NCBI GenBank assembly: GCA_902780395.1
Contig: CACZFH010000005.1
Location: forward strand, 1,557 to 65,556
DNA from: an uncultured Erysipelotrichaceae bacterium
GTDB lineage: Bacteria; Bacillota_I; Bacilli_A; RF39; UBA660
Length of the DNA stretch: 64,000 bases
Reading direction: 5' to 3'
The translations under genes and the position numbers were made by a program. Positions 2,737-53,698 of this stretch are shown here, piece by piece (within the stretch, counting starts at the first letter, position 1; each line of letters starts with the position of its first letter). The notes beneath the pieces were generated by a model. That model was not told the origin of the DNA. It did no database searches and was given only the letters and a program-made list of their open reading frames with translations.

Positions 2737-4012
2737 ATATTTTATTATCTTTTAAGCAAAAGGCTGCATAAATGGGAATATATCTTATTTCTTTCTTCGT
2801 AGAGAAATTGTTTTCAGTAATACGATAAGCTTGAATAATTGTAAATTTCTTCATTAGTACGGCTAATGACTTAGCTTTAGAATTACTTTTTGTTGTTAAT
2901 TCTATAGGGATAATTTGACCATTTCTATTTTGAATTACAAAATTTACTTCAGCTTTTCCTTCAGATTGATAATAATATAGTGAGTATCCTCCATCAACTA
3001 ATGTCTTTGCTAGATGATTTTCATATAATATTTCTTTTTTATTTTCATCTGATAATAATTGCTTTCTATTGAAATGAAGCATAGTAAACAACAATCCTTC
3101 GTCACTACAATATAATTTAAAACTATCTTTATCTTTGCAAGAACTTAATGGTGATTTAATTGTTTTTATCTTATTACTTCTTGATACTATTTGATTGTTC
3201 ACTAGATAATTAATAGTGCTTTCATATTCTTTTGCTCTTTTGCCTACTCCCATTAAACCATATTGAAACTTTTTATTATCCTTTTTTAATTGTTCTGGAA
3301 TAGAATCTATAACTTCTAGACCTCTAGGTATATCTATTAATGTAGTATTAAGAGCAACTTCTTTTTTGTATACGTCTATTATTTTTTGCTTAATGGCATC
3401 TAACTCATAGCTTGTTTTTCCTTGAAGACTCTCATAGATTACTTCTGGCATTCCTCCAGTTTCAAGATACTCCATGAATAAATCAAGAGCAACTTTATGA
3501 AATGGACATGTCTTTTTCTTGGTGAATGATTCTTTTATTAGTTCAGCTAAACTTTTTTCTCCTCGTGCCCATAAATACTCTTCAAAATCCATTGAAGTCA
3601 TTCCTTTAAATTGAAGTTCTTCTCCTTTGAATTCTGATAGTTTTTCCTTTTTTGAAGTAATTGCTATAAAATGATATTTGCTATGTTCACTACCAAATAT
3701 TTTTAATCCTTTTATAATATCATTCTCAATTACATTATCTAATATAATTAAAGAGTCATCCTTTAATATTGTTTCTCCAGATAATAGAGAAAGATTTAAT
3801 ATTATCTTTTCTGTTGATCTTTCTTTTTTAAATAACCCTAGTAATTCTTTATTATTATCTGTGTTGAAATATACAGTGTTTTTATACTCTTTTTTTCCAA
3901 ATTCTAAAACAGAAAAGGTTTTTCCAATTTGTTTAGCACCATATAATACTAATGGTTTTCTAATGATATCGTTTTTCCACTTTTGATAAAATTCTTCTAT
4001 TTTACGTTCCAT
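2735..4012 (-). CDS. AAA+ ATPase (DUF4143-type ATP-binding protein)
   Basis: 425 aa. Walker A-like GAKQIGKT and Walker B-like LIILDNV. The layout matches the AAA_14/DUF4143 ATPases common in Firmicutes. Confidence 0.7.
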   Translation of the reverse strand: MERKIEEFYQKWKNDIIRKPLVLYGAKQIGKTFSVLEFGKKEYKNTVYFNTDNNKELLGLFKKERSTEKIILNLSLLSGETILKDDSLIILDNVIENDIIKGLKIFGSEHSKYHFIAITSKKEKLSEFKGEELQFKGMTSMDFEEYLWARGEKSLAELIKESFTKKKTCPFHKVALDLFMEYLETGGMPEVIYESLQGKTSYELDAIKQKIIDVYKKEVALNTTLIDIPRGLEVIDSIPEQLKKDNKKFQYGLMGVGKRAKEYESTINYLVNNQIVSRSNKIKTIKSPLSSCKDKDSFKLYCSDEGLLFTMLHFNRKQLLSDENKKEILYENHLAKTLVDGGYSLYYYQSEGKAEVNFVIQNRNGQIIPIELTTKSNSKAKSLAVLMKKFTIIQAYRITENNFSTKKEIRYIPIYAAFCLKDNKI

Positions 4013-37425: not shown

Positions 37426-39093
37426 TTATGGAGTTGAAGCTGATACTTGTATTTTCATGTCGGATAAAGTTCCTTTTATCATACGACCATAATTACCGTT
37501 TGATTCGATATTACAACCAAATGTTGCTGGTATATTGAAAGTATTACTTACTGGATAATTTGAAAAGTTATTTGTGTCACTTAATGGAGTAATACTATCA
37601 AAATCTACTTGATAATAGAATTCCATACCTTTTTTGATAATATTTATTCTATGAATTGTTAAAGGTAAATAAACTTGGGCTACTGTCCCTGTACCATCCT
37701 TCATAGCCATTTCATATCTATTTCCACTTAGTCTCAACATAAGTCCTGGATATGTGCTATTAGATTCATCTTTTATATTAAAGAGTGTGGCTTGTTTTAC
37801 TTGGTTGCTGCTGGTAAATTCATCTATTGTGAAAGTGACAACAAAGCTTTTTTGATAATTAGTAGAATTTAATAATTCCACTCCAGTATCAATTATGTTA
37901 GCACTAGTTCCATCAAAGACATGAGCTCCTGATGAGGAATAAGCAACCGTCATAGTTTCATTCATAAAGTCTGCTATTTCTTGATCAATTATATCATAAG
38001 GAATACCTGTTGGTTCGGTTACTCTAACATATAAATTAGCTAAATCTCCGATTAAAAAACGATCAGAATTTGGTACTCCAGCTGGAGATAAAGCAGTTCC
38101 TATGGTTAATGGATTGTCAAAAGTTGGAATAGTAGTAAGATCTGTAACATATACATCTGACCCTCCATTAATAGAATAGAATACTTTATTACTAATTTTC
38201 TTAAGGACAAAAGATTGAATATCCTCTGGGTTCCATTTTAACTTTTTATTATTTACTCCTGTTCCAACCTGAAGATACCATTTGCCATCTTCAATTCTAA
38301 AGACAACTCCTGGATATGGTGAAGCATCATTTATGCTATCAAATATAGTATCTACTTTACCAGTACGGAAACGAGATGGGTCAATGTTGTCAACTGTGAA
38401 TCCTATTTCAAAATCATTATCGTGATTTTCAGCACTAAACAAGGAAATACCTGTATTAATATAATCAATATGTTGGCCGTTGGCACAATCTCCAACAATA
38501 TCATTATTTTCTCCATTGAATTCACAAATACTAGATATTTCATATTCTTCAATGGCTTGGCCATCAAATTTAAAATTTAAATAGGAATTTAAAACTCTTT
38601 CATCATAATGTTGCTGTTGTTCTTTATACTTAAATGTTAAATTGGCAACTATTGTTTCATTAGGATCAATAGTGTCTCCAATACTAATTCCCGTAACTTC
38701 AAAATCTATATCTTCATTGTCATAAAAGTTACTATCATAAACAACTCCTTTAAATTCTTTAGCGGAATTTGTTAAATTAATTATACTAACTTGATATGTA
38801 ATAGAAGAATTTGGGTCATCCCTTAATGTTATTGTAGAATCTACCATGGATTTATAATATGTATTTATATTTGAATTAGAAACATCAGCATTATTATTTG
38901 ATAAATAAGTAACATTACTAATTACTACTCCTGTCTGTCCAGAAGCTGAAGCTACTCCAGATAGTGATAAATCTATTCCAGTAATATTGGCATAACCAAT
39001 TCCCATAATTAAGGTCACAATAATGATTAAGCCTAATAATTTAGGTGTAATACTAATATGTGATAAATACTTTTTTATTTTTTTCATATTCAT
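37426..39093 (-). CDS. Secreted/signal-anchored protein with two LamG (concanavalin-like) type domains
   Basis: 555 aa with an N-terminal anchor (LLGLIIIVTLIMGIGYA). Two similar C-terminal modules end in ...PLTIGTALSPAG...RFLIGDLANLYVRV and ...IPATFGCNIESNG...MIKGTLSDMKIQV, as in Laminin_G_3 domains. Confidence 0.55.
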   Translation of the reverse strand: MNMKKIKKYLSHISITPKLLGLIIIVTLIMGIGYANITGIDLSLSGVASASGQTGVVISNVTYLSNNNADVSNSNINTYYKSMVDSTITLRDDPNSSITYQVSIINLTNSAKEFKGVVYDSNFYDNEDIDFEVTGISIGDTIDPNETIVANLTFKYKEQQQHYDERVLNSYLNFKFDGQAIEEYEISSICEFNGENNDIVGDCANGQHIDYINTGISLFSAENHDNDFEIGFTVDNIDPSRFRTGKVDTIFDSINDASPYPGVVFRIEDGKWYLQVGTGVNNKKLKWNPEDIQSFVLKKISNKVFYSINGGSDVYVTDLTTIPTFDNPLTIGTALSPAGVPNSDRFLIGDLANLYVRVTEPTGIPYDIIDQEIADFMNETMTVAYSSSGAHVFDGTSANIIDTGVELLNSTNYQKSFVVTFTIDEFTSSNQVKQATLFNIKDESNSTYPGLMLRLSGNRYEMAMKDGTGTVAQVYLPLTIHRINIIKKGMEFYYQVDFDSITPLSDTNNFSNYPVSNTFNIPATFGCNIESNGNYGRMIKGTLSDMKIQVSASTP

Positions 39094-39242
39094 TCTCCTT
39101 ATAGGCTATCTTCTTTATTATTTTATCACGTTATTATTTTTTTTTCCATAATTTGAATAAATTGTTTAAGAATTGTTTGTTGATTGTAGTCTTTTTTTGT
39201 TTTATAATTACCTTAGTATTTCATAATATGTAGGGTGATAAT

Positions 39243-41966
39243 ATGAGTAATAAAGATCAATTATTTAGTTATTTTAACCTTTCTTTTGATGAAAATGACT
39301 TAAATCTCCAAGATGCATCATTTAATCTCTTAAATCAGATTATTGAAAAAATAGTTATTTTAAGGTACAAAAAAAGTCTTGATTCGTTTAAATATTCTAG
39401 TACAGGCGATATATACGAAGAATTATTTTCATTGTATTCATCAAAAAACTCAAAAGAACAAGTAGAGTTATTTGCAAAAGAAATATATGAATATATAGGA
39501 GAGGTTGTTCCTCTTTCTAGAATTATAACTGATATTGAGTCATGTTTAGAATATTTGTCATTTATGTCAGGTGTATACTCTCCTACGTCATTAACTGAAA
39601 AACTAAGCGAGACAATTCAAGGTGATGATTATGAAAGCGCCTATAGCATTATTAGTCAATCTTTTAAAAACAATCGCTTTTATCATGAAATAATAGGATA
39701 CAATCTTATACAATATATAACAAAAAACGATGATAATTTTCAAAAACTTGTTATTGCAATAACAAAAGATATTGAAAAATTACATAAAAGTAATCCTAAT
39801 TATATCCAAGATTTAAAATATCAACAGGAAACACATCCTAATAAGTATTTGGATTTGAATATTATTCAAAATATTCAAAATCAAAAATACCAAGAAGTAG
39901 CTGGTGTGATTGCTAAAAAAATAATCGATAATAAGGATTATCATGAGTTAACTGCCTTTATAGATAGTTTTATGGAGGAAGGTGGCAAAGACTTCATTAG
40001 TTTTATAGCTTCTAAAACAATGGATCCAATTAGTCTGTTCTGCAATAAAGTTTTAAATCATGCTGAAGATAAATGGAAGAGAGAAGAAACTGAAAAGATT
40101 AAAGCTAGTACCAAAGGGCACTTAAAGGTAACAGAAAAGTTAAAAAATAGATATTATAAATCACGTCTCATGGAATATATTGAACATTGTATTAAAGATG
40201 AAATATATACCGCTCTTGATTTTGATAGTCAAGAAAGTATGAAATCTTATTTAAAAACGGAAATAGAAAAATCATTGCAAAATCTTTTAGCAAGTAAAAA
40301 ACAGAAACCAAAAACTAACCTAGATTCGACTATTTTGTTGGAAATATTACAAAATGACTTTCTTAGTAGTGGTAAAATAAATGAAGATTTTATAATATAT
40401 GAATATCAAAATAAAACGGGAGTTACAATCTCAAAAGAAGACGCAAAGAATATTGCTAATAAAGTTAATTATTTAAGATATAGATTTATGAAAAATGTGG
40501 AAGAAAGGTTTGATTTTCATATTTCTGATAATTGGTTTGATACCAACAAAAAGGACTTTGATTTTAATGTAACTAATTTTGGTGTTGTTGATAATACTAG
40601 AATACAAAAAGTTGTTTCTATGTTACGAGAAAAAATTGATGAAGAGGAAGCTAAAAAAATACTTCATAATAAAAATATAAAAGATGTTGTATTTTTACTT
40701 CCATTTGTCGGATTAGTTGAAGAATTGGATATAGACTCTTTCTTTAATATTCTTATGCACATTGATGAAATTGAAGAAGTATTAAGAAAAACAAATGAGA
40801 TTCAAAAAGGAGAATCTTCTCTTATTCTTTTGAAAAAATTAAATAATGTTATTGATATAGCTCGGGGATTATCTAGAACTAATAATGGCTTTAAAATTGC
40901 TTTAGGGGATACTGTTTTATCTAAAATACCTGATTTTGAAACAGACATATATATGGAATATTATATTGATATGATTAATGGTCCTAGAAAGAGTATTCCA
41001 CCTATAAATATGACAATTCAAAATAGACACTATAACTCTGGTGATTCATTAGATCCTAATCGATTACTTTTAGAATTTTATCCTAAAGATTCCATAAATT
41101 CATGTGTAAAAATTGGTTCTGGAACTAGCAATAATGCCTTATTAGAAGATTCTGGAGATGCTATTCTAGTTAGAAATAACAAAAATGAAATCATTACTAG
41201 AGTTCTAGTCTATCGAAGAGGTAATGTAGTTCAATTAATTTCTAAGGTAGCTGATATCCCTGTTTCTGATTTACAGGTATATGAAGAAATTGCTAAATAT
41301 ATTATTCAACAAGCAAGAGAAAAGCAGGATAATATAGACTTTGTATTTATTAATCAAGATTCTATTTTAGGTAATACTGATCAATACGTCAAAGTAGATG
41401 ATGGTGATTTCAAAGAATCATTTCCTCATGCTGATACTGTTGGTAGTGCTTATTTATTGTGTTCCAAAGAAGAATATACTGATGATAAAGCGATTAAGGG
41501 CAAATTAGATTTTAAAGCAAAGCCTTTGGCTACCTATGAAGAATATAGGCAAGATGTTATAGTTGCTACAGATAGTAATAATACTAAAAGGATAAATGAT
41601 TATAAGTATACAAGTTTAGATAGTATTGAAGAAAAAGTAATGAGATTAAGAATTATTAAAAAGACTATGGATACAGTTGGTACTTTTTCTAACAATACTG
41701 ATTTTAAAGAATTAAAAAAGGGATTAGATGGTATTGAGAGATTTATTCCCATTGAATATGAAAAAGTTGTGTTAGGAGAAGATTGGTATATTGCAATCAA
41801 AAAAGATGGAACTGTGGAAGAATTAAAGCTACCAAGAAAAAATAAACTTGAGATGAAGAAAGAGATTCAGATGGCTAAAGAAAAATTGGGAATTGATTTA
41901 GATATTATGTTTATGGAACAAAATCATCAAGCAACTGATTCTTATAATAAGAGAAATTCTTATTAG
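39243..41966 (+). CDS. Large orphan protein (907 aa)
   Basis: One of only four plus-strand genes. GGGTGA RBS. No signal peptide. Helical N-terminal two-thirds and a mixed C-terminal domain. No family recognised. Confidence 0.6.
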   Translation: MSNKDQLFSYFNLSFDENDLNLQDASFNLLNQIIEKIVILRYKKSLDSFKYSSTGDIYEELFSLYSSKNSKEQVELFAKEIYEYIGEVVPLSRIITDIESCLEYLSFMSGVYSPTSLTEKLSETIQGDDYESAYSIISQSFKNNRFYHEIIGYNLIQYITKNDDNFQKLVIAITKDIEKLHKSNPNYIQDLKYQQETHPNKYLDLNIIQNIQNQKYQEVAGVIAKKIIDNKDYHELTAFIDSFMEEGGKDFISFIASKTMDPISLFCNKVLNHAEDKWKREETEKIKASTKGHLKVTEKLKNRYYKSRLMEYIEHCIKDEIYTALDFDSQESMKSYLKTEIEKSLQNLLASKKQKPKTNLDSTILLEILQNDFLSSGKINEDFIIYEYQNKTGVTISKEDAKNIANKVNYLRYRFMKNVEERFDFHISDNWFDTNKKDFDFNVTNFGVVDNTRIQKVVSMLREKIDEEEAKKILHNKNIKDVVFLLPFVGLVEELDIDSFFNILMHIDEIEEVLRKTNEIQKGESSLILLKKLNNVIDIARGLSRTNNGFKIALGDTVLSKIPDFETDIYMEYYIDMINGPRKSIPPINMTIQNRHYNSGDSLDPNRLLLEFYPKDSINSCVKIGSGTSNNALLEDSGDAILVRNNKNEIITRVLVYRRGNVVQLISKVADIPVSDLQVYEEIAKYIIQQAREKQDNIDFVFINQDSILGNTDQYVKVDDGDFKESFPHADTVGSAYLLCSKEEYTDDKAIKGKLDFKAKPLATYEEYRQDVIVATDSNNTKRINDYKYTSLDSIEEKVMRLRIIKKTMDTVGTFSNNTDFKELKKGLDGIERFIPIEYEKVVLGEDWYIAIKKDGTVEELKLPRKNKLEMKKEIQMAKEKLGIDLDIMFMEQNHQATDSYNKRNSY

Positions 41967-41967
41967 T

Positions 41968-42004
41968 AAAAGAGATCTACAATTTGTTTTGTAGATCTCT
42001 TTTT
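41968..42004. terminator. Bidirectional terminator between convergent genes
   Basis: AAAGAGATCTACAA-TTTGTT-TTGTAGATCTCTTT, a 14-bp perfect stem with U tracts on both strands. Confidence 0.8.
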
Positions 42005-42875
42005 ATCTTTTTTGAACATATTTTTCTATTGTTTCTTTATCCGGCATAGTACTTCTATCTATACTTTCTAACATTTTTTCTCTATCATATGGTACTAAAA
42101 CCTCTTCTATGTCATAGCCACCATCTACTCTCTCTTTGATAATTATATAAGATGCTGTATTATTGGGATCCTTATCATATCCTATTCCTAGGGCTCTTAT
42201 TGTTCTTACTCTAATTTTACCATCATCGGTTAGATATCTAAAATGAGCATGTCCTTGAATGATTTCATCATAATAATCTACTTGCTTTCCTTCAAAAATT
42301 GGGTCTTCTTTAGCAGATAAATATCCTTTATTTTCTGGTCTATCATCTTTGAGCATTCTTTCTAGTTCTTTTTTTTGAATTTCACTATTTGTACGGTAGA
42401 ATTGTCTTCCCGGCTCTCTAAAACCTTTTTTCATTGCATTTTGATAGTTCCCAACTCCATAGACTCCATGGTCTAACCTAACATCATTGGCAAAATGGCA
42501 AAGACCAATCTTTTTATTTCCAACATACAAGTCAAAGCTATGTTTATTTTTTTTTAACAACTCTACTTGTTCTTCAGTTAATTGAGCAAGAGTCCAGGCT
42601 TCACTTCTTCTTTTTTTTTCAGTGAAATAAAAGGCAAATGGTTCTATTCCAAGAGCAACATATTCTTCATTATTACCATTTATCATATGAACATTATGCT
42701 CAATTAATAATTCTAGTACTTCTTTAGGATTTGGTCCTGTACCTATATTATCACCTAAAGAATAAATTTCTGTAATTCCTCTTCTTTTTATATCTTCTAA
42801 TACTGCGATTGCTGGTTCTAATAAACCATGTACATCTGCAAATATAGCTATTTGTCTACCTGTATATTGTTCCAT
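42003..42875 (-). CDS. Calcineurin-like metallophosphoesterase
   Basis: Ordered motifs DVHG, GDNIGTG, GNNEE, CH and GHAH; 290 aa. Confidence 0.8.
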   Translation of the reverse strand: MEQYTGRQIAIFADVHGLLEPAIAVLEDIKRRGITEIYSLGDNIGTGPNPKEVLELLIEHNVHMINGNNEEYVALGIEPFAFYFTEKKRRSEAWTLAQLTEEQVELLKKNKHSFDLYVGNKKIGLCHFANDVRLDHGVYGVGNYQNAMKKGFREPGRQFYRTNSEIQKKELERMLKDDRPENKGYLSAKEDPIFEGKQVDYYDEIIQGHAHFRYLTDDGKIRVRTIRALGIGYDKDPNNTASYIIIKERVDGGYDIEEVLVPYDREKMLESIDRSTMPDKETIEKYVQKR

Positions 42876-42919
42876 AATATCACCAATTATATTATAAAAT
42901 AAAAAATAAAAAGAGAAAA

Positions 42920-43114
42920 CTATTTTTTTCTCCCTTTATTAGCATAATCCACATATGTATATTGTCCAAGTTTATCAAGCATTTCATCTGTAATGTTTTT
43001 TTCATTATCAGGTGATTCTTTTACTACACTAATCATTTTTTTTATGTATTCATCTGTTGTATTTTCAAAAATAATATTCATAGCTTTATCTAAGCCTTCT
43101 CTATTTTTTCCCAT
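42920..43114 (-). CDS. 64-aa protein translationally coupled to the giant gene
   Basis: Track ORF is 42920..43162. Likely start is ATG 43114 (GGAGAA RBS inside the giant gene), overlapping the giant ORF stop (43101-43103) by 14 nt. Confidence 0.5.
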   Translation of the reverse strand: MGKNREGLDKAMNIIFENTTDEYIKKMISVVKESPDNEKNITDEMLDKLGQYTYVDYANKGRKK

Positions 43115-46100
43115 TATTGTTTTCTCCTTCCTTAATAGGATTTTCTCTTCTAATACTAGCAATATATCCTTTTATTTGTTCTATACAAATATGTTTTCTT
43201 TGAACTATTTTTTCTAGTATTATTTCAGGATGTTCTTTATTTAAAGATTCTGCATATGGCCTAAATATTGCTTCATATTCAATATCCGTCATTTCTTCTA
43301 AAATGGCAAGAGCTTTATCAATTACAGAAAAATCTAGGTCTATTTCTCCAGTTTGATATCTTTCAAATAAATATTGGTAGATTGGAATTCTACTAGGGCC
43401 ATTAGGTACATAACTAAACCTTGGATCTAGAGTCTCAATATCATCGATAAATCTAAATGCTTGCTCTTTATCTACTCCTCTTACATTGTCATTACTATCG
43501 ACAATAAAATTACCTACATAACAATCAAAGTTGCATACTAAGAAGTCTACTACATATTCTTGGAGTAATTGTCTTTTCTTTTTAGGATCTAGTTCTCCTC
43601 TATTTTTTATCCAATCATGTAATTCATCTCTATTCTCGCCTAAGGTTATTTTTTCTTGTTTGGCTACTCGCAATTCGCCTTTACCTAGTACTTCAACTGC
43701 CACTGCTGTATCTGGTGAGATAATTTTTTGGAGTTTGGCTACTGCTTTTTGGACTTCTGCTCTATATGGTTGACTTCTTAATTGCTTTTTATCTACGGAT
43801 GGTTTTAATAGTGACTCTTTTTCTCCTTCTTGTAGTTTAAACATAATACCTGTTTCACCCATATTTGCGTATTCCATCTTTATTATTTCTGCTTCCGAAA
43901 CACTTTTTGCTAAGGCTATTGTGTGAATGATTAAATCTACTTTTCTGATAATTTGTTTGTTATTTGGCTCACTTATCCTATTAGCTAACTGACGAACTAA
44001 TAATAATTGTTTAAGCATTTCTTTGTAATCAATTTTGCCCTCTTCATAGCTTTTCTTTATACAATCAATACAGAAATTAATTGTTGTATCCAATCTTTCT
44101 CCAACTATCCCATTATACATAACATTATATATGCCTTCTTGGGTTGCTCTTTCACTCATGCTTTCTTTAGCAGCTCTATACCTAGCTCCTTTAAGCTCTT
44201 CATACTTTTGCATATTAACTCTTATGATAGGTATTCCAAAGTAATCTGCTGCTCTTACTTGATCTTCATTTGGTTCTAGTCCAGTACATAGAATAGCTTT
44301 TGGCATGACTCCTGCTCGGTAACCAACCACTTCATTATAACTTCCATTTTCACTAGAACAGGTTATTTGATTTAAACTGTTTAAATCGGTATACCTATTA
44401 TTGTTAAATGTTGGTTCCAAGGTATGACCACCATGTTGGGACATTAAGTCTCTACAATACATATATAATAAGAAGTCCTCTGGTAAATCATCAAAAATAT
44501 AGACTACACCATCTGGATCATCTTTGTTTAAAAACCAAAAGCCTCGATCTGATATAGATGATGTAGATAATGTAGATGCTCCATCTAATTTAGTCCATAA
44601 AGATGGATTTTTTAATAACTTAGTAAACAAATCACTCATAGTTGAGTCAAAGTGAAAGAGACGATGAACTACAAAATTAAATGGTTCTTCATCCATATCA
44701 ATTATTGTATAGGTTGCCTCTTTTTGTTGTCCACGATAATCAATTATGGTCTTTCTTTGTTCACTTGTCTTACTTTTTTGTTTTTCTTTTAAAGTATCAA
44801 TTTTTGTTAAATTGGAATTAATTTGATAATTATATAATTTTCTTACTTTTAAAGTAATATTATGTACTATATCAGAATAATCAAGAACATGACCTTTTGT
44901 TTCTATGCCAAGTCTAATTAATTGCTTCAATTCATCTATATTATCTGTTTCTAGTACTTCTTTCATTAAAAGTATTACTTTTACTTCTTCAACGGTAAAA
45001 CTAAGTGACTTAGCAATATCTTCTCCATATTTTTCTTTAATGGTATATAGAGCATAATTAATTTGAGGAAAGTTGTCTAATTGATAATCATTAAAGAAGC
45101 TTTCAAATATATTAAGTTCAGTAAAACCAAATACGGTAACAAAATATTCTCTTATATCATGTATATTTGAAGATTTCAGTTTTTCTTTAGCATATTGTTC
45201 AACTACTTCATCATATCTTGTTAACTCTTCTTTTGTTTTTACATTATATGGATTATTATTCATAATTATTTTTGTTAAGTTTGATACTTCTTCAGGAGTT
45301 AATTCTTTATCAACGATATCTTTTATTAACGGTTTACAGTTTTCAAAATATTTGAATGCAAAATGAAGAAGTTTGTCATCATCTTCAAAAATATGATGTT
45401 TTTGAATTATTTCTATATAGGCTTTGGCAAGATCTAATTCGCCATTTTTTATAATATTTATTATTATTTTATCTGCTTCAGAATTATACTTCATTAAGTC
45501 TGCAGATTTTTTTAATCCTAAAGCTGGAACAACATGTTTTACTAATTCATATGAAAAGACTTCATTCTTTTCTAAAGTATTAACTTTTCCATACTCTTCT
45601 AATAATCGCTTAGCATTATCTCTTATTTTTATTTGTTCTTCTGTAAGTAATGATTCATCTACTTTTAGTAATAATTCAAAATAATTCTTGTAAATTATGT
45701 TAGGATTTTGATTTAAAAGATTAATGAATCCTTCTATTATTTTCTTATCAAAAGTAAAATACAACTCTTTTGATAATACTAAATCTAGGACTTGAATCAT
45801 TAAATCAGAATTATTATTATCAAAGCTATCTAAAGAAATAATTTTCTTTACTCTTTCGATACCCATAATTTTTAAACTGATAGAGCTAGGGTTTTTTATA
45901 TGTTTTATTACATCATCATCAATTATTGATAAATCTGCATAGTTAAGTGCATAAGTATAATTATCTAAAGCTATTTTTAAAGCTTCTTTATCTTTATGCA
46001 TTAATAATAGATAACTAAATAATTGGCCTTTTTTACTTAAAGCCTTATAACATAAATCTTTATAGTTAGTAACATCTATTGGAACATCTAGAATTTGATC

Positions 46101-49100
46101 AATATTTTTTTCTAATACTATATCTATAATTTCTTTATCTTTCTTTAATTCTACTGGTAAAATCTTATATAATTTTGTATCATATATAATAATTTTTAAA
46201 ACTATTTCTTTATCTGACAATACCTCAGGTACATCATTAGCTAATGAATATAACTTTTTAGGGTCTTTCCTAATTAATTCTTTCGTTTTTTCTATAATTT
46301 TTTCATCTTTATCTTCCCCTTGAATAAATGAAATCATAACTAATGGATTAGATTCATAATTATTTTTTGCTAAATGAGATGCTTCAGATACTAAGCCATG
46401 ATTTTTAAGCCATTCTAAGCATTCTTTTTTATATTCTGTTGTTGCAAATAATTCACCTATTTTTTTTAGTTGCTCTTCAGGTGATAGCTTTTCCAATGAT
46501 TTTAGATTAATCAAGAAATATATTTTGACTGAATCAGAAGAAGCATTCTTTATAGTTTCATAGTCTGCTGATGTATAACCATATCTACCTATAATACGGA
46601 GTACAGTTGGCTTATATAGTGTTGATAACATAATAGCACTGATAAACCTTTCTTTATGTTTTTCGTAAATTTCATCGAATAATATACTTAATTCTTCTAG
46701 ATGAGCTTCATAACTGACATTTCCTATACTTTTGAATAATCTTTCAAAGTTCTTTTCATTCCATATTTCTGCTGGAATAGGTTTCTTATTTTGAATGGCA
46801 TAAGAAATTGCTAATGTTGAACTATTTTCATTTACTTTATAACCATGTTCGAAAGCTTGCTTGATTACATCATCAGGAAGATATGATTTTTTATCAATTA
46901 CTTTAGGGTAATCAGTAATAACTATTCTACATATTCTTTCTGTTATTAAATCATTTGGAAGATACTTAACTATTTCATGATAGGATTCAACTAAATTGAT
47001 TCTTTCTTCTGTATCGAGATTATTAAATAAGACTGCTACTTTCTGAATATCTTTTTTAGCTATTACTTCAACTATATCCTTTTTAGTTGCATCGTCACAG
47101 GTTAATAATTGAAAGATTTCAGGTTCTTTCATTATACAATCTATTATTAATGATTTTTCTTTCTCATAATCATCTAATAGATAAATAACGAATCTTGGAT
47201 TTGATTTTATATGAGTTTTAATTATCTCTTTTTCTTCAGTGGTAAAAGTAATAGATGGTATTTTACTAGATAGAAATTGACTATTCTCTATGGTATCTAT
47301 TTTTGGCATATATCCAGCTAATAAAGCTTTTTTTAGAACTTTTTCGTCTCCAGCAAATTGATAGAATCTAACAAATCTTGGATTCCCTTTTTCTACCATA
47401 TTACTAATTATAATCTTAAGAGACTCTGCTGATATATTTACTTTTCTCTGTAATACTTTTTCTATCTTTTCTGGATCAAGATTATCAATAATGGAAGTTA
47501 AGGTGTCTGAATCTTGAAGTAATGTTTCAAGATTTAAATATTGTAAAAGTTCTAGTTCGCTGTCTTTTAGTTTTATTATTAAACGAGTCATATCTATTCT
47601 GCAATATTCAGCTATATAGCTAATTTTATCTTTTGGTATTTTTAATCGATATAATAACGTTAAAAAATCTTCACCATGCTCAAGTAAAATGGAATGTGCT
47701 TGAAAAGCTTCTTTAATATCATCTATATATCCCTCTTCTACTAGTTTTCCTAATATTTCAATATTGAATATAGGTACTTTTCTAAAATCTTCTATGGAAT
47801 AGTTCCTCTTTTTTAATATTTCTAGACTTTCTGGGTCTGTTACTACATATTCTTGTAAAGCTACTATTTCATATTTACCCTGACTTATATAGTATCTTAT
47901 TATTAAGTCTTGAACATTCCTATCAAATGGCCAAAAATCGTCATAAGGTATTTTACCATTTAATCCTTTGTAATATTCTGCTGCCACCATTGTTTCTTCT
48001 TCTTTGCTGATGTTGCTTGTGTCCAGATATTTTATAGCTTCAAGATGACCTTCTTGTAAAAATTTAATTACATCTTTGCAATTAATTACCCTTCCATAGT
48101 AATTATTATCAATACATTTTTTTATTGTTTCATATGGAATATTGGCTTTAACTGCTAAAGAAATTGTTTCTGCATTTGCATTTTTTTCTAACCTATCCAT
48201 TATTTCTTCAATAGGAGGTATTACAAATTTATCTTTTAGTATTCTTAATTCTTTTAATTCTTCTGGTAAAGCATCGTATTGTTCTTCAGTTATGTCATCT
48301 AAACCTAATTCTCTTAAAATAGGCCTTTTTGCTTCTTCATATACGTGTTCAAAGACATCATAATGGCCTTCTTTAATTAATTTTATTGCTGATTCTTTAT
48401 TTATTATAACATTAGGCTTTAGGCTTTTTATTGATAGAAAGTCTTCATATGTAATATTACTAATTTCTTTTTCAGTTACTGAATTTTTTATTAATAAAGC
48501 TCTGGCATCTCCTTTTCTAATAAATGTTTTAAGTAAATTATTATCATAACGAGGACTTTTTAAATAATCCTCTAAAGTAAAGCCTAGTGACACTACTTTC
48601 TCAGCTACTTCTTGGGATAAATCATGATTAAAATTAATAGTATCCTTTTTCCCTAATAAATAATAGATAATATCTAATGTTTCTGATTTTATATTTACAT
48701 TAGTAGTTTTTAATAAACTATAGACATAATCAAATGATTCAAGATTTGTATATAAATCATGAATACGTCTTAGATGTTCATATCTTCCTTGAGATACTAG
48801 ATATTTATTATAGGCAAGAGATTCTACTAGATGGGAACTTCTTTTTTCAAGTTCTTTTAAATCTATCCCACTTTTTATTAATATTTCTACTATTTCTTGT
48901 GTGATTGCTTCTGGTTTAGCATATTCTATGGCTTTATATTCTCCTTTATTAAGTAATAGTTTTAAAATATGTGGACTTTTATGATAGTCTCCATTTATGC
49001 TTATATAATCTTCAATATTAAAATCATCTACCATAGATAATAATTCTTCTGAAGGATCAGATGCAAAAACTATATATTTAGGTCCATATAAACTAATTAA

Positions 49101-49808
49101 TTTTTTTACTTTTTCCATATCTGTTATTACAGAGCATTTTCTTCGTTTAGATAATAATAATATTTTATCAAGTATTACTTGCGTATCTGGTAAATTTTCA
49201 TCTAATAAAGCTTCTACTAATTTTTTTGTATTAGTATATTTTATTAGTAAATCATGGTTCCCTTTTCGTAAATCTTCCAAAACAAGGAACAAGCATCCAT
49301 CTATTCTATTATTTATTATATAATCATAGAATTCTTTATCTATTACTCCATTAGTTGTTTTCAACGAAACTGCATATTTCATTAGTTCTTCATTAGGATA
49401 AAAGCCTTGATTTCTGATAATTTCATCTATGGTATACCCCATACTCAAATAGAAATCAATATCATCTTTTGAAATAACAATTGTGAAATCATCTAAATAT
49501 TCTATTTTATCTTTATAATATTTGAAAATATCATGATATATATTTTTGGGAAGAAAGAGTTGTAAAATTATAAGAATTTCTATTAATTCATTTTTTGGTA
49601 TTTTTTCTAATTTTAGGGAAGGTATAAGTTCTGGATTTGATAAATATTCACTAAGAAATGAGAAATACTTTTTAGATATTTCTTCTCTTCTAGTCGAGTT
49701 GTTTTCAGAAATTATTTCATTAATATCGGTATCTGGCCCCAATATTTCACTTATATTATCTTTAAAGTATTTAATTTCATCATATATTCTTTTTACTATA
49801 TCTTCCAT
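43101..49808 (-). CDS. Giant 2235-aa cytoplasmic repeat protein with C-terminal PI3/PI4-kinase-like catalytic motif
   Basis: AGGTGG RBS and no signal peptide. Degenerate helical modules end in L(I/V)xEG(H/Y)xxxI(K/E)(Y/H). DUF4116-like repeats occupy the middle. The C-terminus has VVDFLVCNFDCYVGNFIV...VRGVDKEQAF (nt 43449-43547), which matches type-II PI4K spacing (DYLIRNTDRGNDNWLI...IDNGLAF). Confidence 0.75.
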   Translation of the reverse strand: MEDIVKRIYDEIKYFKDNISEILGPDTDINEIISENNSTRREEISKKYFSFLSEYLSNPELIPSLKLEKIPKNELIEILIILQLFLPKNIYHDIFKYYKDKIEYLDDFTIVISKDDIDFYLSMGYTIDEIIRNQGFYPNEELMKYAVSLKTTNGVIDKEFYDYIINNRIDGCLFLVLEDLRKGNHDLLIKYTNTKKLVEALLDENLPDTQVILDKILLLSKRRKCSVITDMEKVKKLISLYGPKYIVFASDPSEELLSMVDDFNIEDYISINGDYHKSPHILKLLLNKGEYKAIEYAKPEAITQEIVEILIKSGIDLKELEKRSSHLVESLAYNKYLVSQGRYEHLRRIHDLYTNLESFDYVYSLLKTTNVNIKSETLDIIYYLLGKKDTINFNHDLSQEVAEKVVSLGFTLEDYLKSPRYDNNLLKTFIRKGDARALLIKNSVTEKEISNITYEDFLSIKSLKPNVIINKESAIKLIKEGHYDVFEHVYEEAKRPILRELGLDDITEEQYDALPEELKELRILKDKFVIPPIEEIMDRLEKNANAETISLAVKANIPYETIKKCIDNNYYGRVINCKDVIKFLQEGHLEAIKYLDTSNISKEEETMVAAEYYKGLNGKIPYDDFWPFDRNVQDLIIRYYISQGKYEIVALQEYVVTDPESLEILKKRNYSIEDFRKVPIFNIEILGKLVEEGYIDDIKEAFQAHSILLEHGEDFLTLLYRLKIPKDKISYIAEYCRIDMTRLIIKLKDSELELLQYLNLETLLQDSDTLTSIIDNLDPEKIEKVLQRKVNISAESLKIIISNMVEKGNPRFVRFYQFAGDEKVLKKALLAGYMPKIDTIENSQFLSSKIPSITFTTEEKEIIKTHIKSNPRFVIYLLDDYEKEKSLIIDCIMKEPEIFQLLTCDDATKKDIVEVIAKKDIQKVAVLFNNLDTEERINLVESYHEIVKYLPNDLITERICRIVITDYPKVIDKKSYLPDDVIKQAFEHGYKVNENSSTLAISYAIQNKKPIPAEIWNEKNFERLFKSIGNVSYEAHLEELSILFDEIYEKHKERFISAIMLSTLYKPTVLRIIGRYGYTSADYETIKNASSDSVKIYFLINLKSLEKLSPEEQLKKIGELFATTEYKKECLEWLKNHGLVSEASHLAKNNYESNPLVMISFIQGEDKDEKIIEKTKELIRKDPKKLYSLANDVPEVLSDKEIVLKIIIYDTKLYKILPVELKKDKEIIDIVLEKNIDQILDVPIDVTNYKDLCYKALSKKGQLFSYLLLMHKDKEALKIALDNYTYALNYADLSIIDDDVIKHIKNPSSISLKIMGIERVKKIISLDSFDNNNSDLMIQVLDLVLSKELYFTFDKKIIEGFINLLNQNPNIIYKNYFELLLKVDESLLTEEQIKIRDNAKRLLEEYGKVNTLEKNEVFSYELVKHVVPALGLKKSADLMKYNSEADKIIINIIKNGELDLAKAYIEIIQKHHIFEDDDKLLHFAFKYFENCKPLIKDIVDKELTPEEVSNLTKIIMNNNPYNVKTKEELTRYDEVVEQYAKEKLKSSNIHDIREYFVTVFGFTELNIFESFFNDYQLDNFPQINYALYTIKEKYGEDIAKSLSFTVEEVKVILLMKEVLETDNIDELKQLIRLGIETKGHVLDYSDIVHNITLKVRKLYNYQINSNLTKIDTLKEKQKSKTSEQRKTIIDYRGQQKEATYTIIDMDEEPFNFVVHRLFHFDSTMSDLFTKLLKNPSLWTKLDGASTLSTSSISDRGFWFLNKDDPDGVVYIFDDLPEDFLLYMYCRDLMSQHGGHTLEPTFNNNRYTDLNSLNQITCSSENGSYNEVVGYRAGVMPKAILCTGLEPNEDQVRAADYFGIPIIRVNMQKYEELKGARYRAAKESMSERATQEGIYNVMYNGIVGERLDTTINFCIDCIKKSYEEGKIDYKEMLKQLLLVRQLANRISEPNNKQIIRKVDLIIHTIALAKSVSEAEIIKMEYANMGETGIMFKLQEGEKESLLKPSVDKKQLRSQPYRAEVQKAVAKLQKIISPDTAVAVEVLGKGELRVAKQEKITLGENRDELHDWIKNRGELDPKKKRQLLQEYVVDFLVCNFDCYVGNFIVDSNDNVRGVDKEQAFRFIDDIETLDPRFSYVPNGPSRIPIYQYLFERYQTGEIDLDFSVIDKALAILEEMTDIEYEAIFRPYAESLNKEHPEIILEKIVQRKHICIEQIKGYIASIRRENPIKEGENNNGKK

Positions 49809-49883
49809 ATTACCACCTATTATTATTTTATCATATTAGGTTTAAAAGAAATATACGTATTATTTATTTTTTTCATTAAGAAT

Positions 49884-49910
49884 AATAAAAACTAGCAATC
49901 TTTGTGCTAG
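49884..49910 (-). terminator. Rho-independent terminator after proS
   Basis: Minus strand: CTAGCA-CAAAGAT-TGCTAG followed by TTTTTATTATT. Confidence 0.6.
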
Positions 49911-49926
49911 CTTTTACTTTTACTTT

Positions 49927-51195
49927 TTATTTTAATTTATCCAATATATTTTCTATGGTTACTATAGTAATAGTATTATTCTTAACGTCTTCAATTTCAT
50001 AGTTAATTCCATCAAACCTATTTCCAAGAATAATCATTTTAGGAGTCCCTAAAACATATACATCATTTATTTTTGAACCAATAGATAAATTTTCTCTATC
50101 ATCTATTATTGATTGAATGTTATTATCTAGTAAATAGTAATATAATTTTTCTGCTGCTTCTTTATTTTTTTCATTATAAATAATATGAACTTTGTATGGG
50201 GCAATATTATATGGTAAAACAAAACCTTTTATTTTGTTATTATCTTTGATAATGTTATTCTCTATTAGGCAAGCAATAATTCTTCCTAGACCAATTCCAT
50301 AACAACCCATATAATATGGTTTTTTCTCGTTGTTTTCATCGGTATAGTAAAGGCCCATACTCTCAGAATATTTGGTTCCTAATTGGAAGTTATTTCCTAA
50401 TTCAATGGCACTATATTCTTTTAAATCATTTATATCTACTATTCCTAATTGTTTTAGATATTCATCTTTATTTTGAAAGCTTAAAACTTCTTTATTAATA
50501 CCAATATCATTCTTTTCATCATATAAAATTTTATCTTCTCCTAAATCGGTTATTGCTTGAAATTCTTCAGCAACTTTTCCACCTATGACACCATTATCAC
50601 TTACTGTTGGGATAATTTTGATACCTATTCTTTTAAATATATTTAAATAAACTTGGTGCATTAATTTATAAGATTTTTGCATATCTTCTTCTGTTTTATC
50701 AAAAGAATAGGCATCCATCATAACAAATGTTCTTGGTCTAAATAAATAACCTCTAGTTCTTATTTCTTTTCTAAATTTTTCGTTTATTTGGTAGTATATT
50801 GCTGGAAGATTTTTATATGATTCTAACCTGTTAGAACCAAATATAGTTGCACACTCTTCAGCGGTTGGAGCAAGTCCATATTCTCCTAAGTTATTTTTGA
50901 GAGTAAACATTATGTCTCCTTCTTTAGTATAGGTATCCCATCTATTAGATTGCTCCCAAATCTTTTTAGGTTGCAATTTAGGAAATTCCACTTGAATACA
51001 ATCGGCTTTATCTAACTCTTCTATAATTATACTTTCAACATTTCTTTCTAATTTAGTCCATAGATTACCATAACCATATATACCACTTTCATATTGATAT
51101 AGTTCACCTAATTTCATTAAAATATCTTGGCCAGAATATTTTTTATCAACATCATTAAAATTTATTTTTTTGATATTTAATTTATTTAATCTCAT
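49927..51195 (-). CDS. proS: Prolyl-tRNA synthetase, bacterial type lacking the INS editing domain
   Basis: Motif 2 is FRKEIRTRGYLFRPRTFVMMDAYSF and motif 3 is GCYGIGLGRIIA; APTAEE is present. Only ~135 aa separate motifs 2 and 3 (about 280 in E. coli ProRS). Total length is 422 aa. Confidence 0.85.
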   Translation of the reverse strand: MRLNKLNIKKINFNDVDKKYSGQDILMKLGELYQYESGIYGYGNLWTKLERNVESIIIEELDKADCIQVEFPKLQPKKIWEQSNRWDTYTKEGDIMFTLKNNLGEYGLAPTAEECATIFGSNRLESYKNLPAIYYQINEKFRKEIRTRGYLFRPRTFVMMDAYSFDKTEEDMQKSYKLMHQVYLNIFKRIGIKIIPTVSDNGVIGGKVAEEFQAITDLGEDKILYDEKNDIGINKEVLSFQNKDEYLKQLGIVDINDLKEYSAIELGNNFQLGTKYSESMGLYYTDENNEKKPYYMGCYGIGLGRIIACLIENNIIKDNNKIKGFVLPYNIAPYKVHIIYNEKNKEAAEKLYYYLLDNNIQSIIDDRENLSIGSKINDVYVLGTPKMIILGNRFDGINYEIEDVKNNTITIVTIENILDKLK

Positions 51196-51987: not shown

Positions 51988-53091
51988 TTATCTATGCTGG
52001 TATGAAACAGGTTTAACATGTTGGTCATCATATACAATTCTGTATTTATTATTAATATAGTTTGTAATATTATCAATATAGTTCAAATCTATAATATCTT
52101 TTTCTGCACATTCTATAACCCAATCCAACTTTAATTCTGGGTTGTTAATTGAATCTATTATGCTATATATTTCTCTCTGTTCTAAGTTTTGAATTTCTTT
52201 CCTTAAAAAATCATTTTTAAAGGCGTCTTCTTTCTCTTGTTCTTTTCGAATCTCTTTATTTGAATATTTATTATTCTTTCTTTTTTTCTTATCGCTATAA
52301 TATTTTATACTTGAAGCAACAATATTAACAACAGTTAATCCACCATTGTTTTTTTCTTTATTAGCATTTAATATTGCTACAATATTAGCATCTTCTAAAC
52401 ATTGCTTTTTGTATTTTGTCTTCATTGTTAAGACTAGTTCTTTAAATTCTTCATAAGTATTAGAAGCTAATCTATCTGCATTTTCTTTAATAAATGACAA
52501 TTTATCTTTGTCATCTTTATATGTTTTTACAAGTTCACATATATCAGAAAAATACAGTAAACTTTTTATTTGTTCATCATTTATACAGTCTTTTTTCATT
52601 TGGTAATTCATTGAACTAAGGATATTCTTTAATGCTTCATGGTAACGATAAATTAAATATTCATTATCTAATCCTAGTAATCTAATTTTTTTTGAATCAT
52701 TAATTATTTTGTTATTTATATAGTCAAATTTTACTTGATTGGCATCTTCTTCATTATATGAGGCAATTATTAAAGCTTCATTATCTATAGAAAGCTTTCC
52801 TTCAATTCTCTTGTCCTTAAGATATTTTGTTTTCTTAGTATCCTCTTTAATAGAGCTTATCATAATTGCTAAATCTTCTCCATCAAAGAAGTTATTATTA
52901 ATACCTTCTTCTAAAGCTGTTTCTATATTATCACTTTCTTTATATGAGGCAATAACTTTGGCATAGGTATGATATCTTTTATCATTTAATAATATTTCTT
53001 TTATTCTATTATCATTCATGCAATCTTTTTTTATAGAATCAGACTCTATTGATAATATTGGCTTATCTCTGTGACAAGAGTCTAAATACAA
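51988..53091 (-). CDS. Hypothetical helical repeat protein (367 aa)
   Basis: Recurring K(K/Q)(D/Q)C(M/I/L)(N/E)D..I motif (KKDCMNDNRIKEIL, KKDCINDEQIKSLL, KKQCLEDANIVAIL). No family recognised. Confidence 0.5.
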   Translation of the reverse strand: MYLDSCHRDKPILSIESDSIKKDCMNDNRIKEILLNDKRYHTYAKVIASYKESDNIETALEEGINNNFFDGEDLAIMISSIKEDTKKTKYLKDKRIEGKLSIDNEALIIASYNEEDANQVKFDYINNKIINDSKKIRLLGLDNEYLIYRYHEALKNILSSMNYQMKKDCINDEQIKSLLYFSDICELVKTYKDDKDKLSFIKENADRLASNTYEEFKELVLTMKTKYKKQCLEDANIVAILNANKEKNNGGLTVVNIVASSIKYYSDKKKRKNNKYSNKEIRKEQEKEDAFKNDFLRKEIQNLEQREIYSIIDSINNPELKLDWVIECAEKDIIDLNYIDNITNYINNKYRIVYDDQHVKPVSYQHR

Positions 53092-53128
53092 TAAAACTTC
53101 TGGTATAATACATTCTCTTTTTTCTTTA

Positions 53129-53698
53129 TCAGTCTTTTTTTTTAGTTATTCTTTTAATTACTTTTATTTTGTCTTCAAATTTTGTGTTTTTTAATATAGT
53201 AGATATTGTTTCATCAGAAAATATTTTTTCAATAAACACATGAGAGTGAAACGAAAAAATTGTTTTTATTAAAGATTTTGTATCATATGGTTCTTTACCA
53301 TTTTCAGGTTCTTCATATACAAATATTTCCTTATACTTATTAAAAACAGCAGCTTTTATTTCATCTGATTCTATGTTAGAAATAATACTTGCTACATAAT
53401 CATAATAGTCATTTCTATTGTTGATTATTTGGTTATAAATAAAATTGTTTTGATAAATATATGTATTAATTATCTCATCATCTTCTAGTTGCCTTATTAA
53501 TATTAGTAATCCTATAAATGAATAATAAAGATTTTCTGGATTTTCTTCTATTGTTTTTGTTAGTAATTGTATTAGCTTTTTAATTCCATCTTTGGTTTTT
53601 ACTAGTTCTTGTAGTTCTTCAAAGTTAAGCTCTGTTTTTTTCATTATTTCATCATAATATAATAAAACTTTTCCATCATTAAATTCTATTAAATTCAT
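53129..53698 (-). CDS. Hypothetical helical protein (189 aa)
   Basis: ORF with an RBS. No motif recognised. Confidence 0.5.
   Translation of the reverse strand: MNLIEFNDGKVLLYYDEIMKKTELNFEELQELVKTKDGIKKLIQLLTKTIEENPENLYYSFIGLLILIRQLEDDEIINTYIYQNNFIYNQIINNRNDYYDYVASIISNIESDEIKAAVFNKYKEIFVYEEPENGKEPYDTKSLIKTIFSFHSHVFIEKIFSDETISTILKNTKFEDKIKVIKRITKKKD

Follow-up and report, generated by a model that had tools for sequence, protein, structure and literature searches.

A giant protein of a gut Bacilli bacterium ends in a predicted kinase-like domain shared with phage head fusion proteins

Phage proteins in which a MuF domain is fused to an effector are viewed as head-packaged proteins delivered together with the phage DNA (PMC5512222, PMC9503650, PMC5576092), and the T7 kinase serves as a precedent for such injected effectors (PMC5512222, PMC9503650). 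A survey of MuF toxins does not mention kinases (PMC5576092). A kinase clade of polyvalent proteins, which retains H-x-D and has lost the C-lobe, was reported from Verrucomicrobia and Bacteroidetes (PMC5512222), and the "Tox-Peptide Kinase" of Zhang et al. 2012, found in Firmicutes, displays the motifs DxH, YKP[KR], DxHxEN, and DxE (PMC3482391). Here, we analysed a stretch of 64,000 nucleotides (the window) from contig CACZFH010000005.1 (assembly GCA_902780395.1) of an uncultured Erysipelotrichaceae bacterium, which encodes a protein of 2,235 amino acids (aa), called the giant in the following. Structure prediction supports a protein-kinase-like (PKL) superfamily fold for its C-terminal 260 residues, and on balance we favour, with modest confidence, the reading that the giant is a cytoplasmic, chromosomally inherited multidomain enzyme with an active kinase at the end of a helical-repeat scaffold.

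An AlphaFold2 (AF2) model of the C-terminal 260 residues, based on a 14-sequence alignment (A2), reached a predicted local distance difference test score (pLDDT) of 88.4 and a predicted TM-score (pTM) of 0.86. Foldseek returned 32 matches from the PDB at E<=1e-3, all of them kinases with a probability of 1.00, including RIPK2 (E 1.8e-4), PI3K gamma (2.4e-4), and CtkA, a HipA-like kinase of H. pylori (3e-4), as well as PI3K alpha, beta, and delta, RNase L, and the kinase of a lanthipeptide synthetase (8sam). The best query-normalised TM-score (TMq) was that of CtkA with 0.49-0.55. Among the viral models of BFVD, gp16 of Mycobacterium phage Onyinye came out on top (E 1.4e-9, TMq 0.73), followed by phage and haloviral proteins labelled "PI3K/PI4K catalytic domain-containing" by UniProt (E 7e-7 and below). 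The weak Pfam matches in relatives of the domain were to kinase families only, namely PI3_PI4_kinase (sub-threshold, E 5.3e-5, 0.0055, and 0.024), HipA_C (E 0.0021-0.023), and HipA_2 (E 0.096). The domain sits near the HipA/PI3K-PI4K part of the PKL superfamily, where membership of any named family is not demonstrable. An earlier note on this DNA had proposed a kinase-like C-terminus; AF2 and Foldseek bear out the fold, but the giant itself has no Pfam kinase match at E<=1.

The positions conserved among 20 family members that are less than 38% identical (alignment A5) comprise a Gly-rich loop LGGxG, an L-F-K-P motif with the strand-3 Lys (K2002 in the giant), and R-A-x-x-Q-E, followed by the catalytic segment E-x-V-x-D-W-L-x-x-N-x-D-x4-N-F (D2088, N2093, D2095, and N2100) and G-I-D-K-E-Q-x-F (D2113). 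In A2 and A5, K2002, D2095, N2100, and D2113 show complete invariance or a conservation of at least 90%. The strings of the giant that had first drawn attention to this region, LLKP, AEVQKA, DFLVCNFDCYVGNFIV, and GVDKEQAF, start at residues 2000, 2017, 2088, and 2111, respectively. Two positions after the catalytic Asp, the giant is without the Lys that is common in relatives (D-C-Y-V-G-N vs D-T-K-x-E-N). The earlier note had further stated that Cys replaces the catalytic-loop Arg; the Cys is there, but its position varies across the family (C, S, T, G, N, or A). Judging from the fold and the conserved residues, the domain is most likely an active ATP-dependent phosphotransferase, in which Lys2002 is predicted to hold the ATP phosphates, Asp2095 to act as catalytic base, and Asn2100 together with Asp2113 to serve as Mg2+ ligands. 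Since the nearest characterised folds are HipA/CtkA, eukaryote-type protein kinases, and PI3K, and since the family is used as a phage effector, the substrate would by analogy be a protein, modified on Ser/Thr.

A search of 1.84 billion representatives with a profile hidden Markov model (HMM) of the domain yielded 1,507 clusters (at 50% identity) at E<=1e-3 and 407 at E<=1e-30. Among GTDB species genomes, 77 loci were detected, almost all of them in gut Bacillota, with hosts assigned to Bacilli, "Tenericutes", Candidatus Coprovivens, Clostridia, Oscillospiraceae, and Lachnospiraceae. Family members occur as stand-alone domains of about 270 aa, as tandem doubles of about 950 aa, and as proteins of about 570-690 aa and about 1,120-1,290 aa, the latter with Phage_Mu_F upstream of the kinase-like domain, while giants of 2,214-2,350 aa are confined to the Bacilli group. 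Pfam domains recognised among 24 large relatives were Phage_Mu_F (3), Phage_min_cap2 (2), ADPrib_exo_Tox (2), NUDIX (1), and Rho_N (1). A scan of IMG/VR with A2 uncovered 126 viral-contig stretches encoding the domain, and 80 of these loci were fetched for counting architectures; in 78 of the 80, a MuF-like N-terminus is followed by the kinase-like domain within one open reading frame (ORF) of about 1,140 aa. These viral ORFs (among L086-L165, e.g., L088:34-3453) are laid out with MuF at about residues 1-350, the kinase-like domain at about 360-620, and a C-terminal extension of about 520 aa, which showed no Pfam match in the members scanned (P0018 and L017). They seem to make up a class of phage head fusion proteins that is abundant yet undescribed.

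Related fusions are present in mycobacteriophages. The family HMM matched McProf gp54 and Onyinye gp16 with E-values of 1e-45 and 1.7e-40, respectively. McProf gp54 combines VG15, the kinase-like domain, and an ADP-ribosyltransferase (ART) domain, its gene lying between the portal and scaffold genes; Onyinye gp16 consists of the kinase-like and ART domains, and its gene adjoins the terminase gene. Onyinye gp16 (L080), McProf gp54 (L081), and Phrappuccino gp195 each contain a complete, unannotated kinase-like domain, their GenBank labels being "ADP-ribosyltransferase", "minor capsid fusion", or "hypothetical", and no PHROG covers the domain. Fusions packaged in phage heads are the main habitat of the family, with MuF or a minor capsid domain first, the kinase-like domain next, and often an ART domain last. 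From the 78 MuF fusions, the ART fusions, and the bacterial and viral distribution, we conclude that the kinase-like domain is a prokaryotic and phage conflict-type module and not a eukaryotic import. The phyletic survey of the C-terminal domain that the earlier note had called for thus uncovered a large bacterial and phage family, and the term "eukaryote-like" used there has to be abandoned in view of its clusters, bacterial loci, and viral stretches, in which the phage MuF head domain is the commonest partner. The polyvalent-protein kinase clade appears to differ from the family of the giant, having other hallmarks and other hosts (PMC5512222).

Some architectures contain more than one copy of the domain or further enzymatic domains. 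Tandem copies were observed in proteins of about 930-1,010 aa encoded by metagenome-assembled genomes (MAGs) of Lachnospiraceae, Agathobaculum, and Hungatella (L054, L056, L061-L064, L067, L068, and L070). One copy is without the catalytic Asp (e.g., S-N-H-G-S-T-G-D-N) in some multi-copy relatives, and this loss suggests kinase/pseudokinase pairs. A Bacilli MAG from goat omasum encodes a 3,061-aa protein (L011:1512-10694) with the kinase-like domain at residues 2166-2401 and a C-terminal ADP-ribosyltransferase at 2936-3050; the N-terminus of this protein is unrelated to that of the giant.

The giant carries the same kinase-like domain as the MuF/minor-capsid fusion effectors, as seen in its structural match to Onyinye gp16, but it differs from them in several respects. 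It has no MuF, portal, or ART domain, and neither Phage_Mu_F nor any PHROG head protein matched it. For the remaining 1,975 residues, which comprise an N-terminal part of 1,690 residues and the "mid" domain behind it, no viral homologues were found; the N-terminal and pre-kinase regions were likewise without homologues in the other family architectures. The gene does not lie in a prophage, its neighbours being housekeeping genes for prolyl-tRNA synthetase (ProRS), thioredoxin, thioredoxin reductase, MarR, PFK, and Ham1. Neither a signal peptide, which the earlier note had already described as absent, nor a membrane segment was detected; the N-terminus is hydrophilic, and the highest Kyte-Doolittle mean over 19 residues was 1.36. 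Based on these sequence features and on its neighbours, the giant is taken to be a cytoplasmic, chromosomal protein.

The ORF of 2,235 aa reported earlier is real. Instead of being fragmented in related genomes, a possibility that the earlier note had raised, it is unbroken in seven full-length homologues of 98-44% identity and in others at about 30% (intact among P0001-P0010 and L001-L009), and 12 contigs encode a protein identical to the giant. Conservation climbs toward the C-terminus, from 0.45 to 0.75, and the giant is under strong purifying selection. Its conserved core comprises residues ~1375-2235; several members align only from there on and not in their N-termini, and a Pfam scan of six relatives with such non-aligning N-termini gave nothing informative.

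Upstream of this core, the peptide strings quoted by the earlier note were all recovered at their places, and the repeats that it had recognised proved to be genuine. The degenerate module ending in L(I/V)xEGxY (LLNKGEYKAIEYA at residue 285, LIKEGHYDVFEHV at 477, FLQEGHLEAIKYL at 583, YISQGKYEIVALQ at 640, and LVEEGYIDDIKEA at 689) tiles residues 255-825 in eight copies. The motif itself, a pattern defined post hoc after the data had been seen, occurs 10 times in the giant, compared to 0.36 +/- 0.6 times in 2,000 shuffles (maximum 3), and its Gly and aromatic positions are invariant across the orthologues. E-values of the repeat-module HMM are circular because it was trained on the same copies that it scored. 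The DUF4116-like repeats described for the middle of the protein, of which the quoted string starts at residue 1200, pass the Pfam gathering threshold in the giant (Table 1), with a second, weaker stretch nearby, and DUF4116 is present in the orthologues too.

Between scaffold and kinase-like domain lies the mid domain of 286 aa, which is as strongly conserved as its neighbour. Invariant in alignment A3 are H1715-R1716, a G-A-S-T-x-S-x-S-S-x-S loop (1743-1753), N1825-E1826, R1831, and C1841. In the giant, the loop reads G-A-S-T-L-S-T-S-S-I-S, with very low AF2 confidence. This invariant, Ser/Thr-rich stretch might serve as phospho-acceptor or bind phosphate. The AF2 model of the domain was poor (pLDDT 67, with the conserved core below 50) and gave no Foldseek match. 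Ten members showed no Pfam match at E<=10, a profile search found no PDB match, and a profile search of 5.8 billion proteins revealed no relatives outside the lineage of the giants. An identity as an ADP-ribosyltransferase, considered on account of the H-R / S-T-S / N-E pattern, was rejected: hhalign of A3 against eight ART domains that co-occur with the kinase family gave a probability of 0.3%, and none of the 10 members had an ART Pfam match at E<=10.

Downstream, a 64-aa ORF overlaps the end of the giant gene and is followed by a gene for a metallophosphoesterase. Homologues of the 64-aa ORF were identified in L001 (E 1e-31), L004 (5e-5), L008 (0.013), L078, and L079, and these ORFs of 63-69 aa (MGKNREGLDKAMNIIFENTTDEYIKKMISVVKESPDNEKNITDEMLDKLGQYTYVDYANKGRKK) always overlap the stop codon of the giant, which suggests translational coupling of the two genes; they are located at L078:16720-16911, L079:8365-8574, and about 8747-8977 in L001, L004, and L008. 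A programmed frameshift joining both ORFs was rejected, the overlap being 1 nt (stop/start) in L078 and L079 and 14 nt at the locus of the giant. The 64-aa protein gave no informative family match and no match to a helix-turn-helix (HTH) domain, and no counterpart was found in the other architectures of the kinase family; given this absence, it cannot count as the cognate partner of the kinase domain itself. No terminator was found ahead of the metallophosphoesterase gene, and the giant, the 64-aa ORF, and the metallophosphoesterase appear to form one operon (41968-43114). A kinase/phosphoesterase pairing is possible, and a metallophosphoesterase gene is also found 3' of the giant in L078. Beyond about 55% identity, the 64-aa ORF is the sole conserved neighbour of the giant gene, so that gene context tells little about function.

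Table 1. Features of the giant locus; coordinates are nucleotide positions in the 64,000-nt window
Feature	Coordinates	Strand	Remarks
Terminator-like hairpin, 15-bp stem, at the end of the apparent operon	41968..42003	(+)	Convergent with the 907-aa gene
Calcineurin-like metallophosphoesterase, 290 aa	42003..42875	(-)	Pfam Metallophos, Metallophos_2; PDB 3rqz, 3qfm; last gene of the apparent operon
64-aa ORF, shares 14 nt with the end of the giant gene	42920..43114	(-)	Independently called by gene finders
Giant ORF, 2,235 aa	43101..49808	(-)	ATG start; no signal peptide or transmembrane segment
Predicted protein-kinase-like (PI3K/PI4K/HipA-type) domain, residues 1975-2235	43104..43886	(-)	AF2, Foldseek, family alignments A2/A5
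Catalytic segment D2088-F2118	43455..43547	(-)	D2088, N2093, D2095, N2100, D2113, K-E-Q-x-F
Mid domain, residues 1690-1975, 286 aa	43884..44741	(-)	Alignment A3; lineage-restricted
Conserved pre-domain, residues 1375-1689	44742..45686	(-)	Opens the C-terminal core common to all giant-family members
Best DUF4116 repeat, residues 1199-1237	46098..46214	(-)	Pfam PF13475, E 7.6e-7, 29 bits vs 24.9 cut-off
Eight copies of a helical module of ~50 aa, residues 255-825	47334..49046	(-)	G-[YF]-T-x-E-D-[YF] ... L-[IV]-x-E-G-x-Y
Shine-Dalgarno GGTGG, 5 nt 5' of the ATG of the giant	49813..49817	(-)	Read directly off the sequence
Terminator-like hairpin between the ProRS gene (upstream) and the giant gene	49884..49918	(-)	Consensus scan only
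Short prolyl-tRNA synthetase, 422 aa, upstream of the giant	49927-51195	(-)	

If the giant is such an enzyme, its scaffold of about 1,700 aa may recruit or position substrates, or localise the protein, and the mid domain might be a second catalytic unit or, via its Ser/Thr-rich loop, a regulatory phospho-acceptor; the 64-aa protein and the metallophosphoesterase could modulate or reverse the kinase activity. All three suggestions are speculative, and several points weigh against the reading as a whole. No significant kinase match emerged when Pfam, NCBIfam, and the PDB sequences were searched with the full giant and with profiles A2 and A5, so that the kinase fold was revealed by structure prediction alone, and TM-scores to solved kinases amount to only 0.35-0.55. 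With a single-sequence template, the hhalign alignment of the family segment with residues 290-340 of E. coli HipA (P 0.0015) reaches a probability of only 16.6%. Other reactions catalysed by PKL folds are AMPylation, glutamylation, and the phosphorylation of small molecules or lipids, and next to the kinase-like domain stands an equally conserved mid domain without a recognised fold. The helical-repeat scaffold is deduced from periodicity and DUF4116 alone, and synteny with the metallophosphoesterase is kept in close relatives only. Kinase activity and substrate class of the giant are predictions.

One alternative, which we regard as unlikely, is that the PKL fold performs another chemistry or none, the domain being a pseudokinase or scaffold, an AMPylase or glutamylase like SelO or SidJ, or a small-molecule or nucleotide kinase, with the mid domain as a possible real catalytic centre. 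The conservation of the mid domain, with its enzyme-like invariant H, R, S/T cluster, N-E, R, and C, would fit such a view, as would the absence of the Lys following the catalytic Asp in the giant and the known capacity of PKL folds for non-kinase transfers. On the other hand, K2002, D2095, N2100, and D2113 are nearly invariant over the 20 divergent sequences of A5, and this retention of the canonical nucleotide, Mg, and catalytic positions makes a dead domain unlikely; a positive sign of an alternative chemistry was not seen.

Similarly improbable, in our estimation, is a HipA-like growth-arrest toxin restrained by the 64-aa protein translated together with it. Such a module of the toxin-antitoxin or abortive-infection type would sense phage or stress through its scaffold. 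HipA and CtkA (PDB 3akk/3akl) share the bilobal PKL fold with the giant, CtkA giving the best TM-score, and the h-D-W-L-x-x-N-x-D-x-H-x-x-N-F segment is in register with E. coli HipA "QWLIGATDGHAKNF...YD". By hhalign, D2095, N2100, and D2113 pair with D309, N314, and D332 of HipA, which we take to be its catalytic positions. HipA_C (PF07804, threshold 30.5 bits) did not match the domain of the giant, while four of 20 relatives matched at E>=0.023 and Onyinye gp16 at E 0.0021 (18.2 bits, sub-threshold). A small conserved ORF over the stop codon, an arrangement common to many toxin-antidote pairs, and the relatives of the family acting as conflict effectors in phages are further arguments for a toxin. 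Unlike HipA, however, the domain of the giant is embedded in a 2,235-aa protein, has its own helical extension at the C-terminus, in which an R-K motif is conserved, and shows D-K-E-Q-x-F where HipA has its own Mg-Asp context; a HipA N-terminal domain or a HipB-type HTH partner was not found by Pfam in the giant or its neighbours. The 64-aa ORF is missing from all other family architectures, the surroundings are those of housekeeping genes, and the giant has stayed full-length across deeply diverged relatives instead of showing a patchy or mobile occurrence. With PADLOC-DB 2.0, the giant and five of six neighbours tested remained without a match, the sole match being SduA on the 64-aa ORF (E 0.0045), which is at chance level. 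As for the Tox-Peptide Kinase, compared by its listed motifs only, these are similar to the consensus of the family (L-[FY]-K-P, D-[ST]-[HK]-x-[EG]-N, and D-K-E), and the lanthipeptide-synthetase kinase 8sam among the Foldseek matches is a further point in common, but it was reported with PVC secretion (PMC3482391) and not with MuF or giant scaffolds.

The earlier note had likened the C-terminus to type-II PI4-kinases. Homology to these enzymes, which would make the giant a eukaryote-like lipid (phosphoinositide) kinase carried on repeats, is rendered very improbable by the data. Compared with PI4K2A (PDB chain 4hnd), the D-x4-N-x-D-x4-N loop is indeed in register (LDYIIRNTDRGNDNWLI and VDFLVCNFDCYVGNFIV, with D, N, D, N, and hydrophobic positions coinciding), as claimed, but the distance from the loop Asn to the Mg-binding Asp is 13 residues in the giant and 33 in PI4K2A. 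A spacing of 13 residues is also that of canonical protein kinases and PI3K. The second motif does match IDNGLAF, though with a spacing of D-x3-AF and not D-x4-AF. At the fold level, PI3K gamma, alpha, beta, and delta (E 2e-4 to 1e-3) and the phage proteins labelled as PI3K/PI4K by UniProt are among the top matches, and some relatives show weak PI3_PI4_kinase matches (PF00454, gathering score 27.1 bits; the match at E 0.024 has 15 bits). PI4K2A and PI4K2B, however, are missing from the top 50 PDB matches of Foldseek, the giant has no PF00454 match at E<=1, and among relatives HipA_C matches are commoner than PI3_PI4 matches (4/20 vs 2/20). The domain also differs from PI3K/PI4K in being without helical or C2 accessory domains, and its family is overwhelmingly phage and bacterial; Bacillota are not known to produce phosphoinositides. 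The data neither point to a lipid-kinase function nor exclude one, and protein kinases of the HipA/CtkA type are at least as close.

Least credible is a polymorphic-toxin-like protein exported by a non-classical route with the 64-aa ORF as immunity protein, for although its C-terminal enzymatic domain is shared with MuF polymorphic toxins and a small ORF directly follows, no LXG, WXG, MuF, or RHS trafficking domain or signal peptide was recognised, no alternative C-terminal cassettes were seen, and conservation is highest at the C-terminus and variability at the N-terminus, the reverse of polymorphic toxins.

Two further observations concern the surroundings of the giant. In comparison to bacterial ProRS chains of the PDB (567-579 aa), the best matched stretch of the 422-aa ProRS covers only about residues 17-274, and the enzyme may lack the insertion (editing) domain. 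Neighbouring ORFs of 555 aa (-), 907 aa (+), 367 aa (-), and 189 aa (-) at 37426-41966 and 51988-53698 showed no Pfam or PADLOC match, illustrating the poor annotation of this low-GC (~27%) lineage.

Returning to the favoured reading of the giant as a cytoplasmic multidomain enzyme, what is new here is a kinase-like module behind a scaffold of about 1,700 aa and an orphan mid domain, a giant architecture without precedent. More tentatively, and with less confidence than in the enzyme itself, we envisage a new kinase family near HipA/PI3K-PI4K, with at least 1,500 clusters, that is packaged by phages via MuF and injected, and that was captured by a single clade of gut Bacilli with reduced genomes, where fusion to a new enzymatic domain and a 1,700-aa scaffold, together with a dedicated 64-aa partner, would have produced a cytoplasmic signalling or conflict machine.

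The finding corrects the tempting reading of a "eukaryote-like lipid kinase in a Firmicute". No model in Pfam, PHROG, or NCBIfam represents the kinase-like domain, which gut phages and Bacillota carry in abundance, and phage annotation currently hides it under labels such as "ADP-ribosyltransferase" or "minor capsid", while the 286-aa mid domain may represent a genuinely new fold or enzyme. Should the kinase-like domain be active, the MuF-kinase fusions would be widespread injected host-modifying kinases, comparable to T7 gp0.7, and the giant would be an example of a phage-type module in a conserved cellular role.

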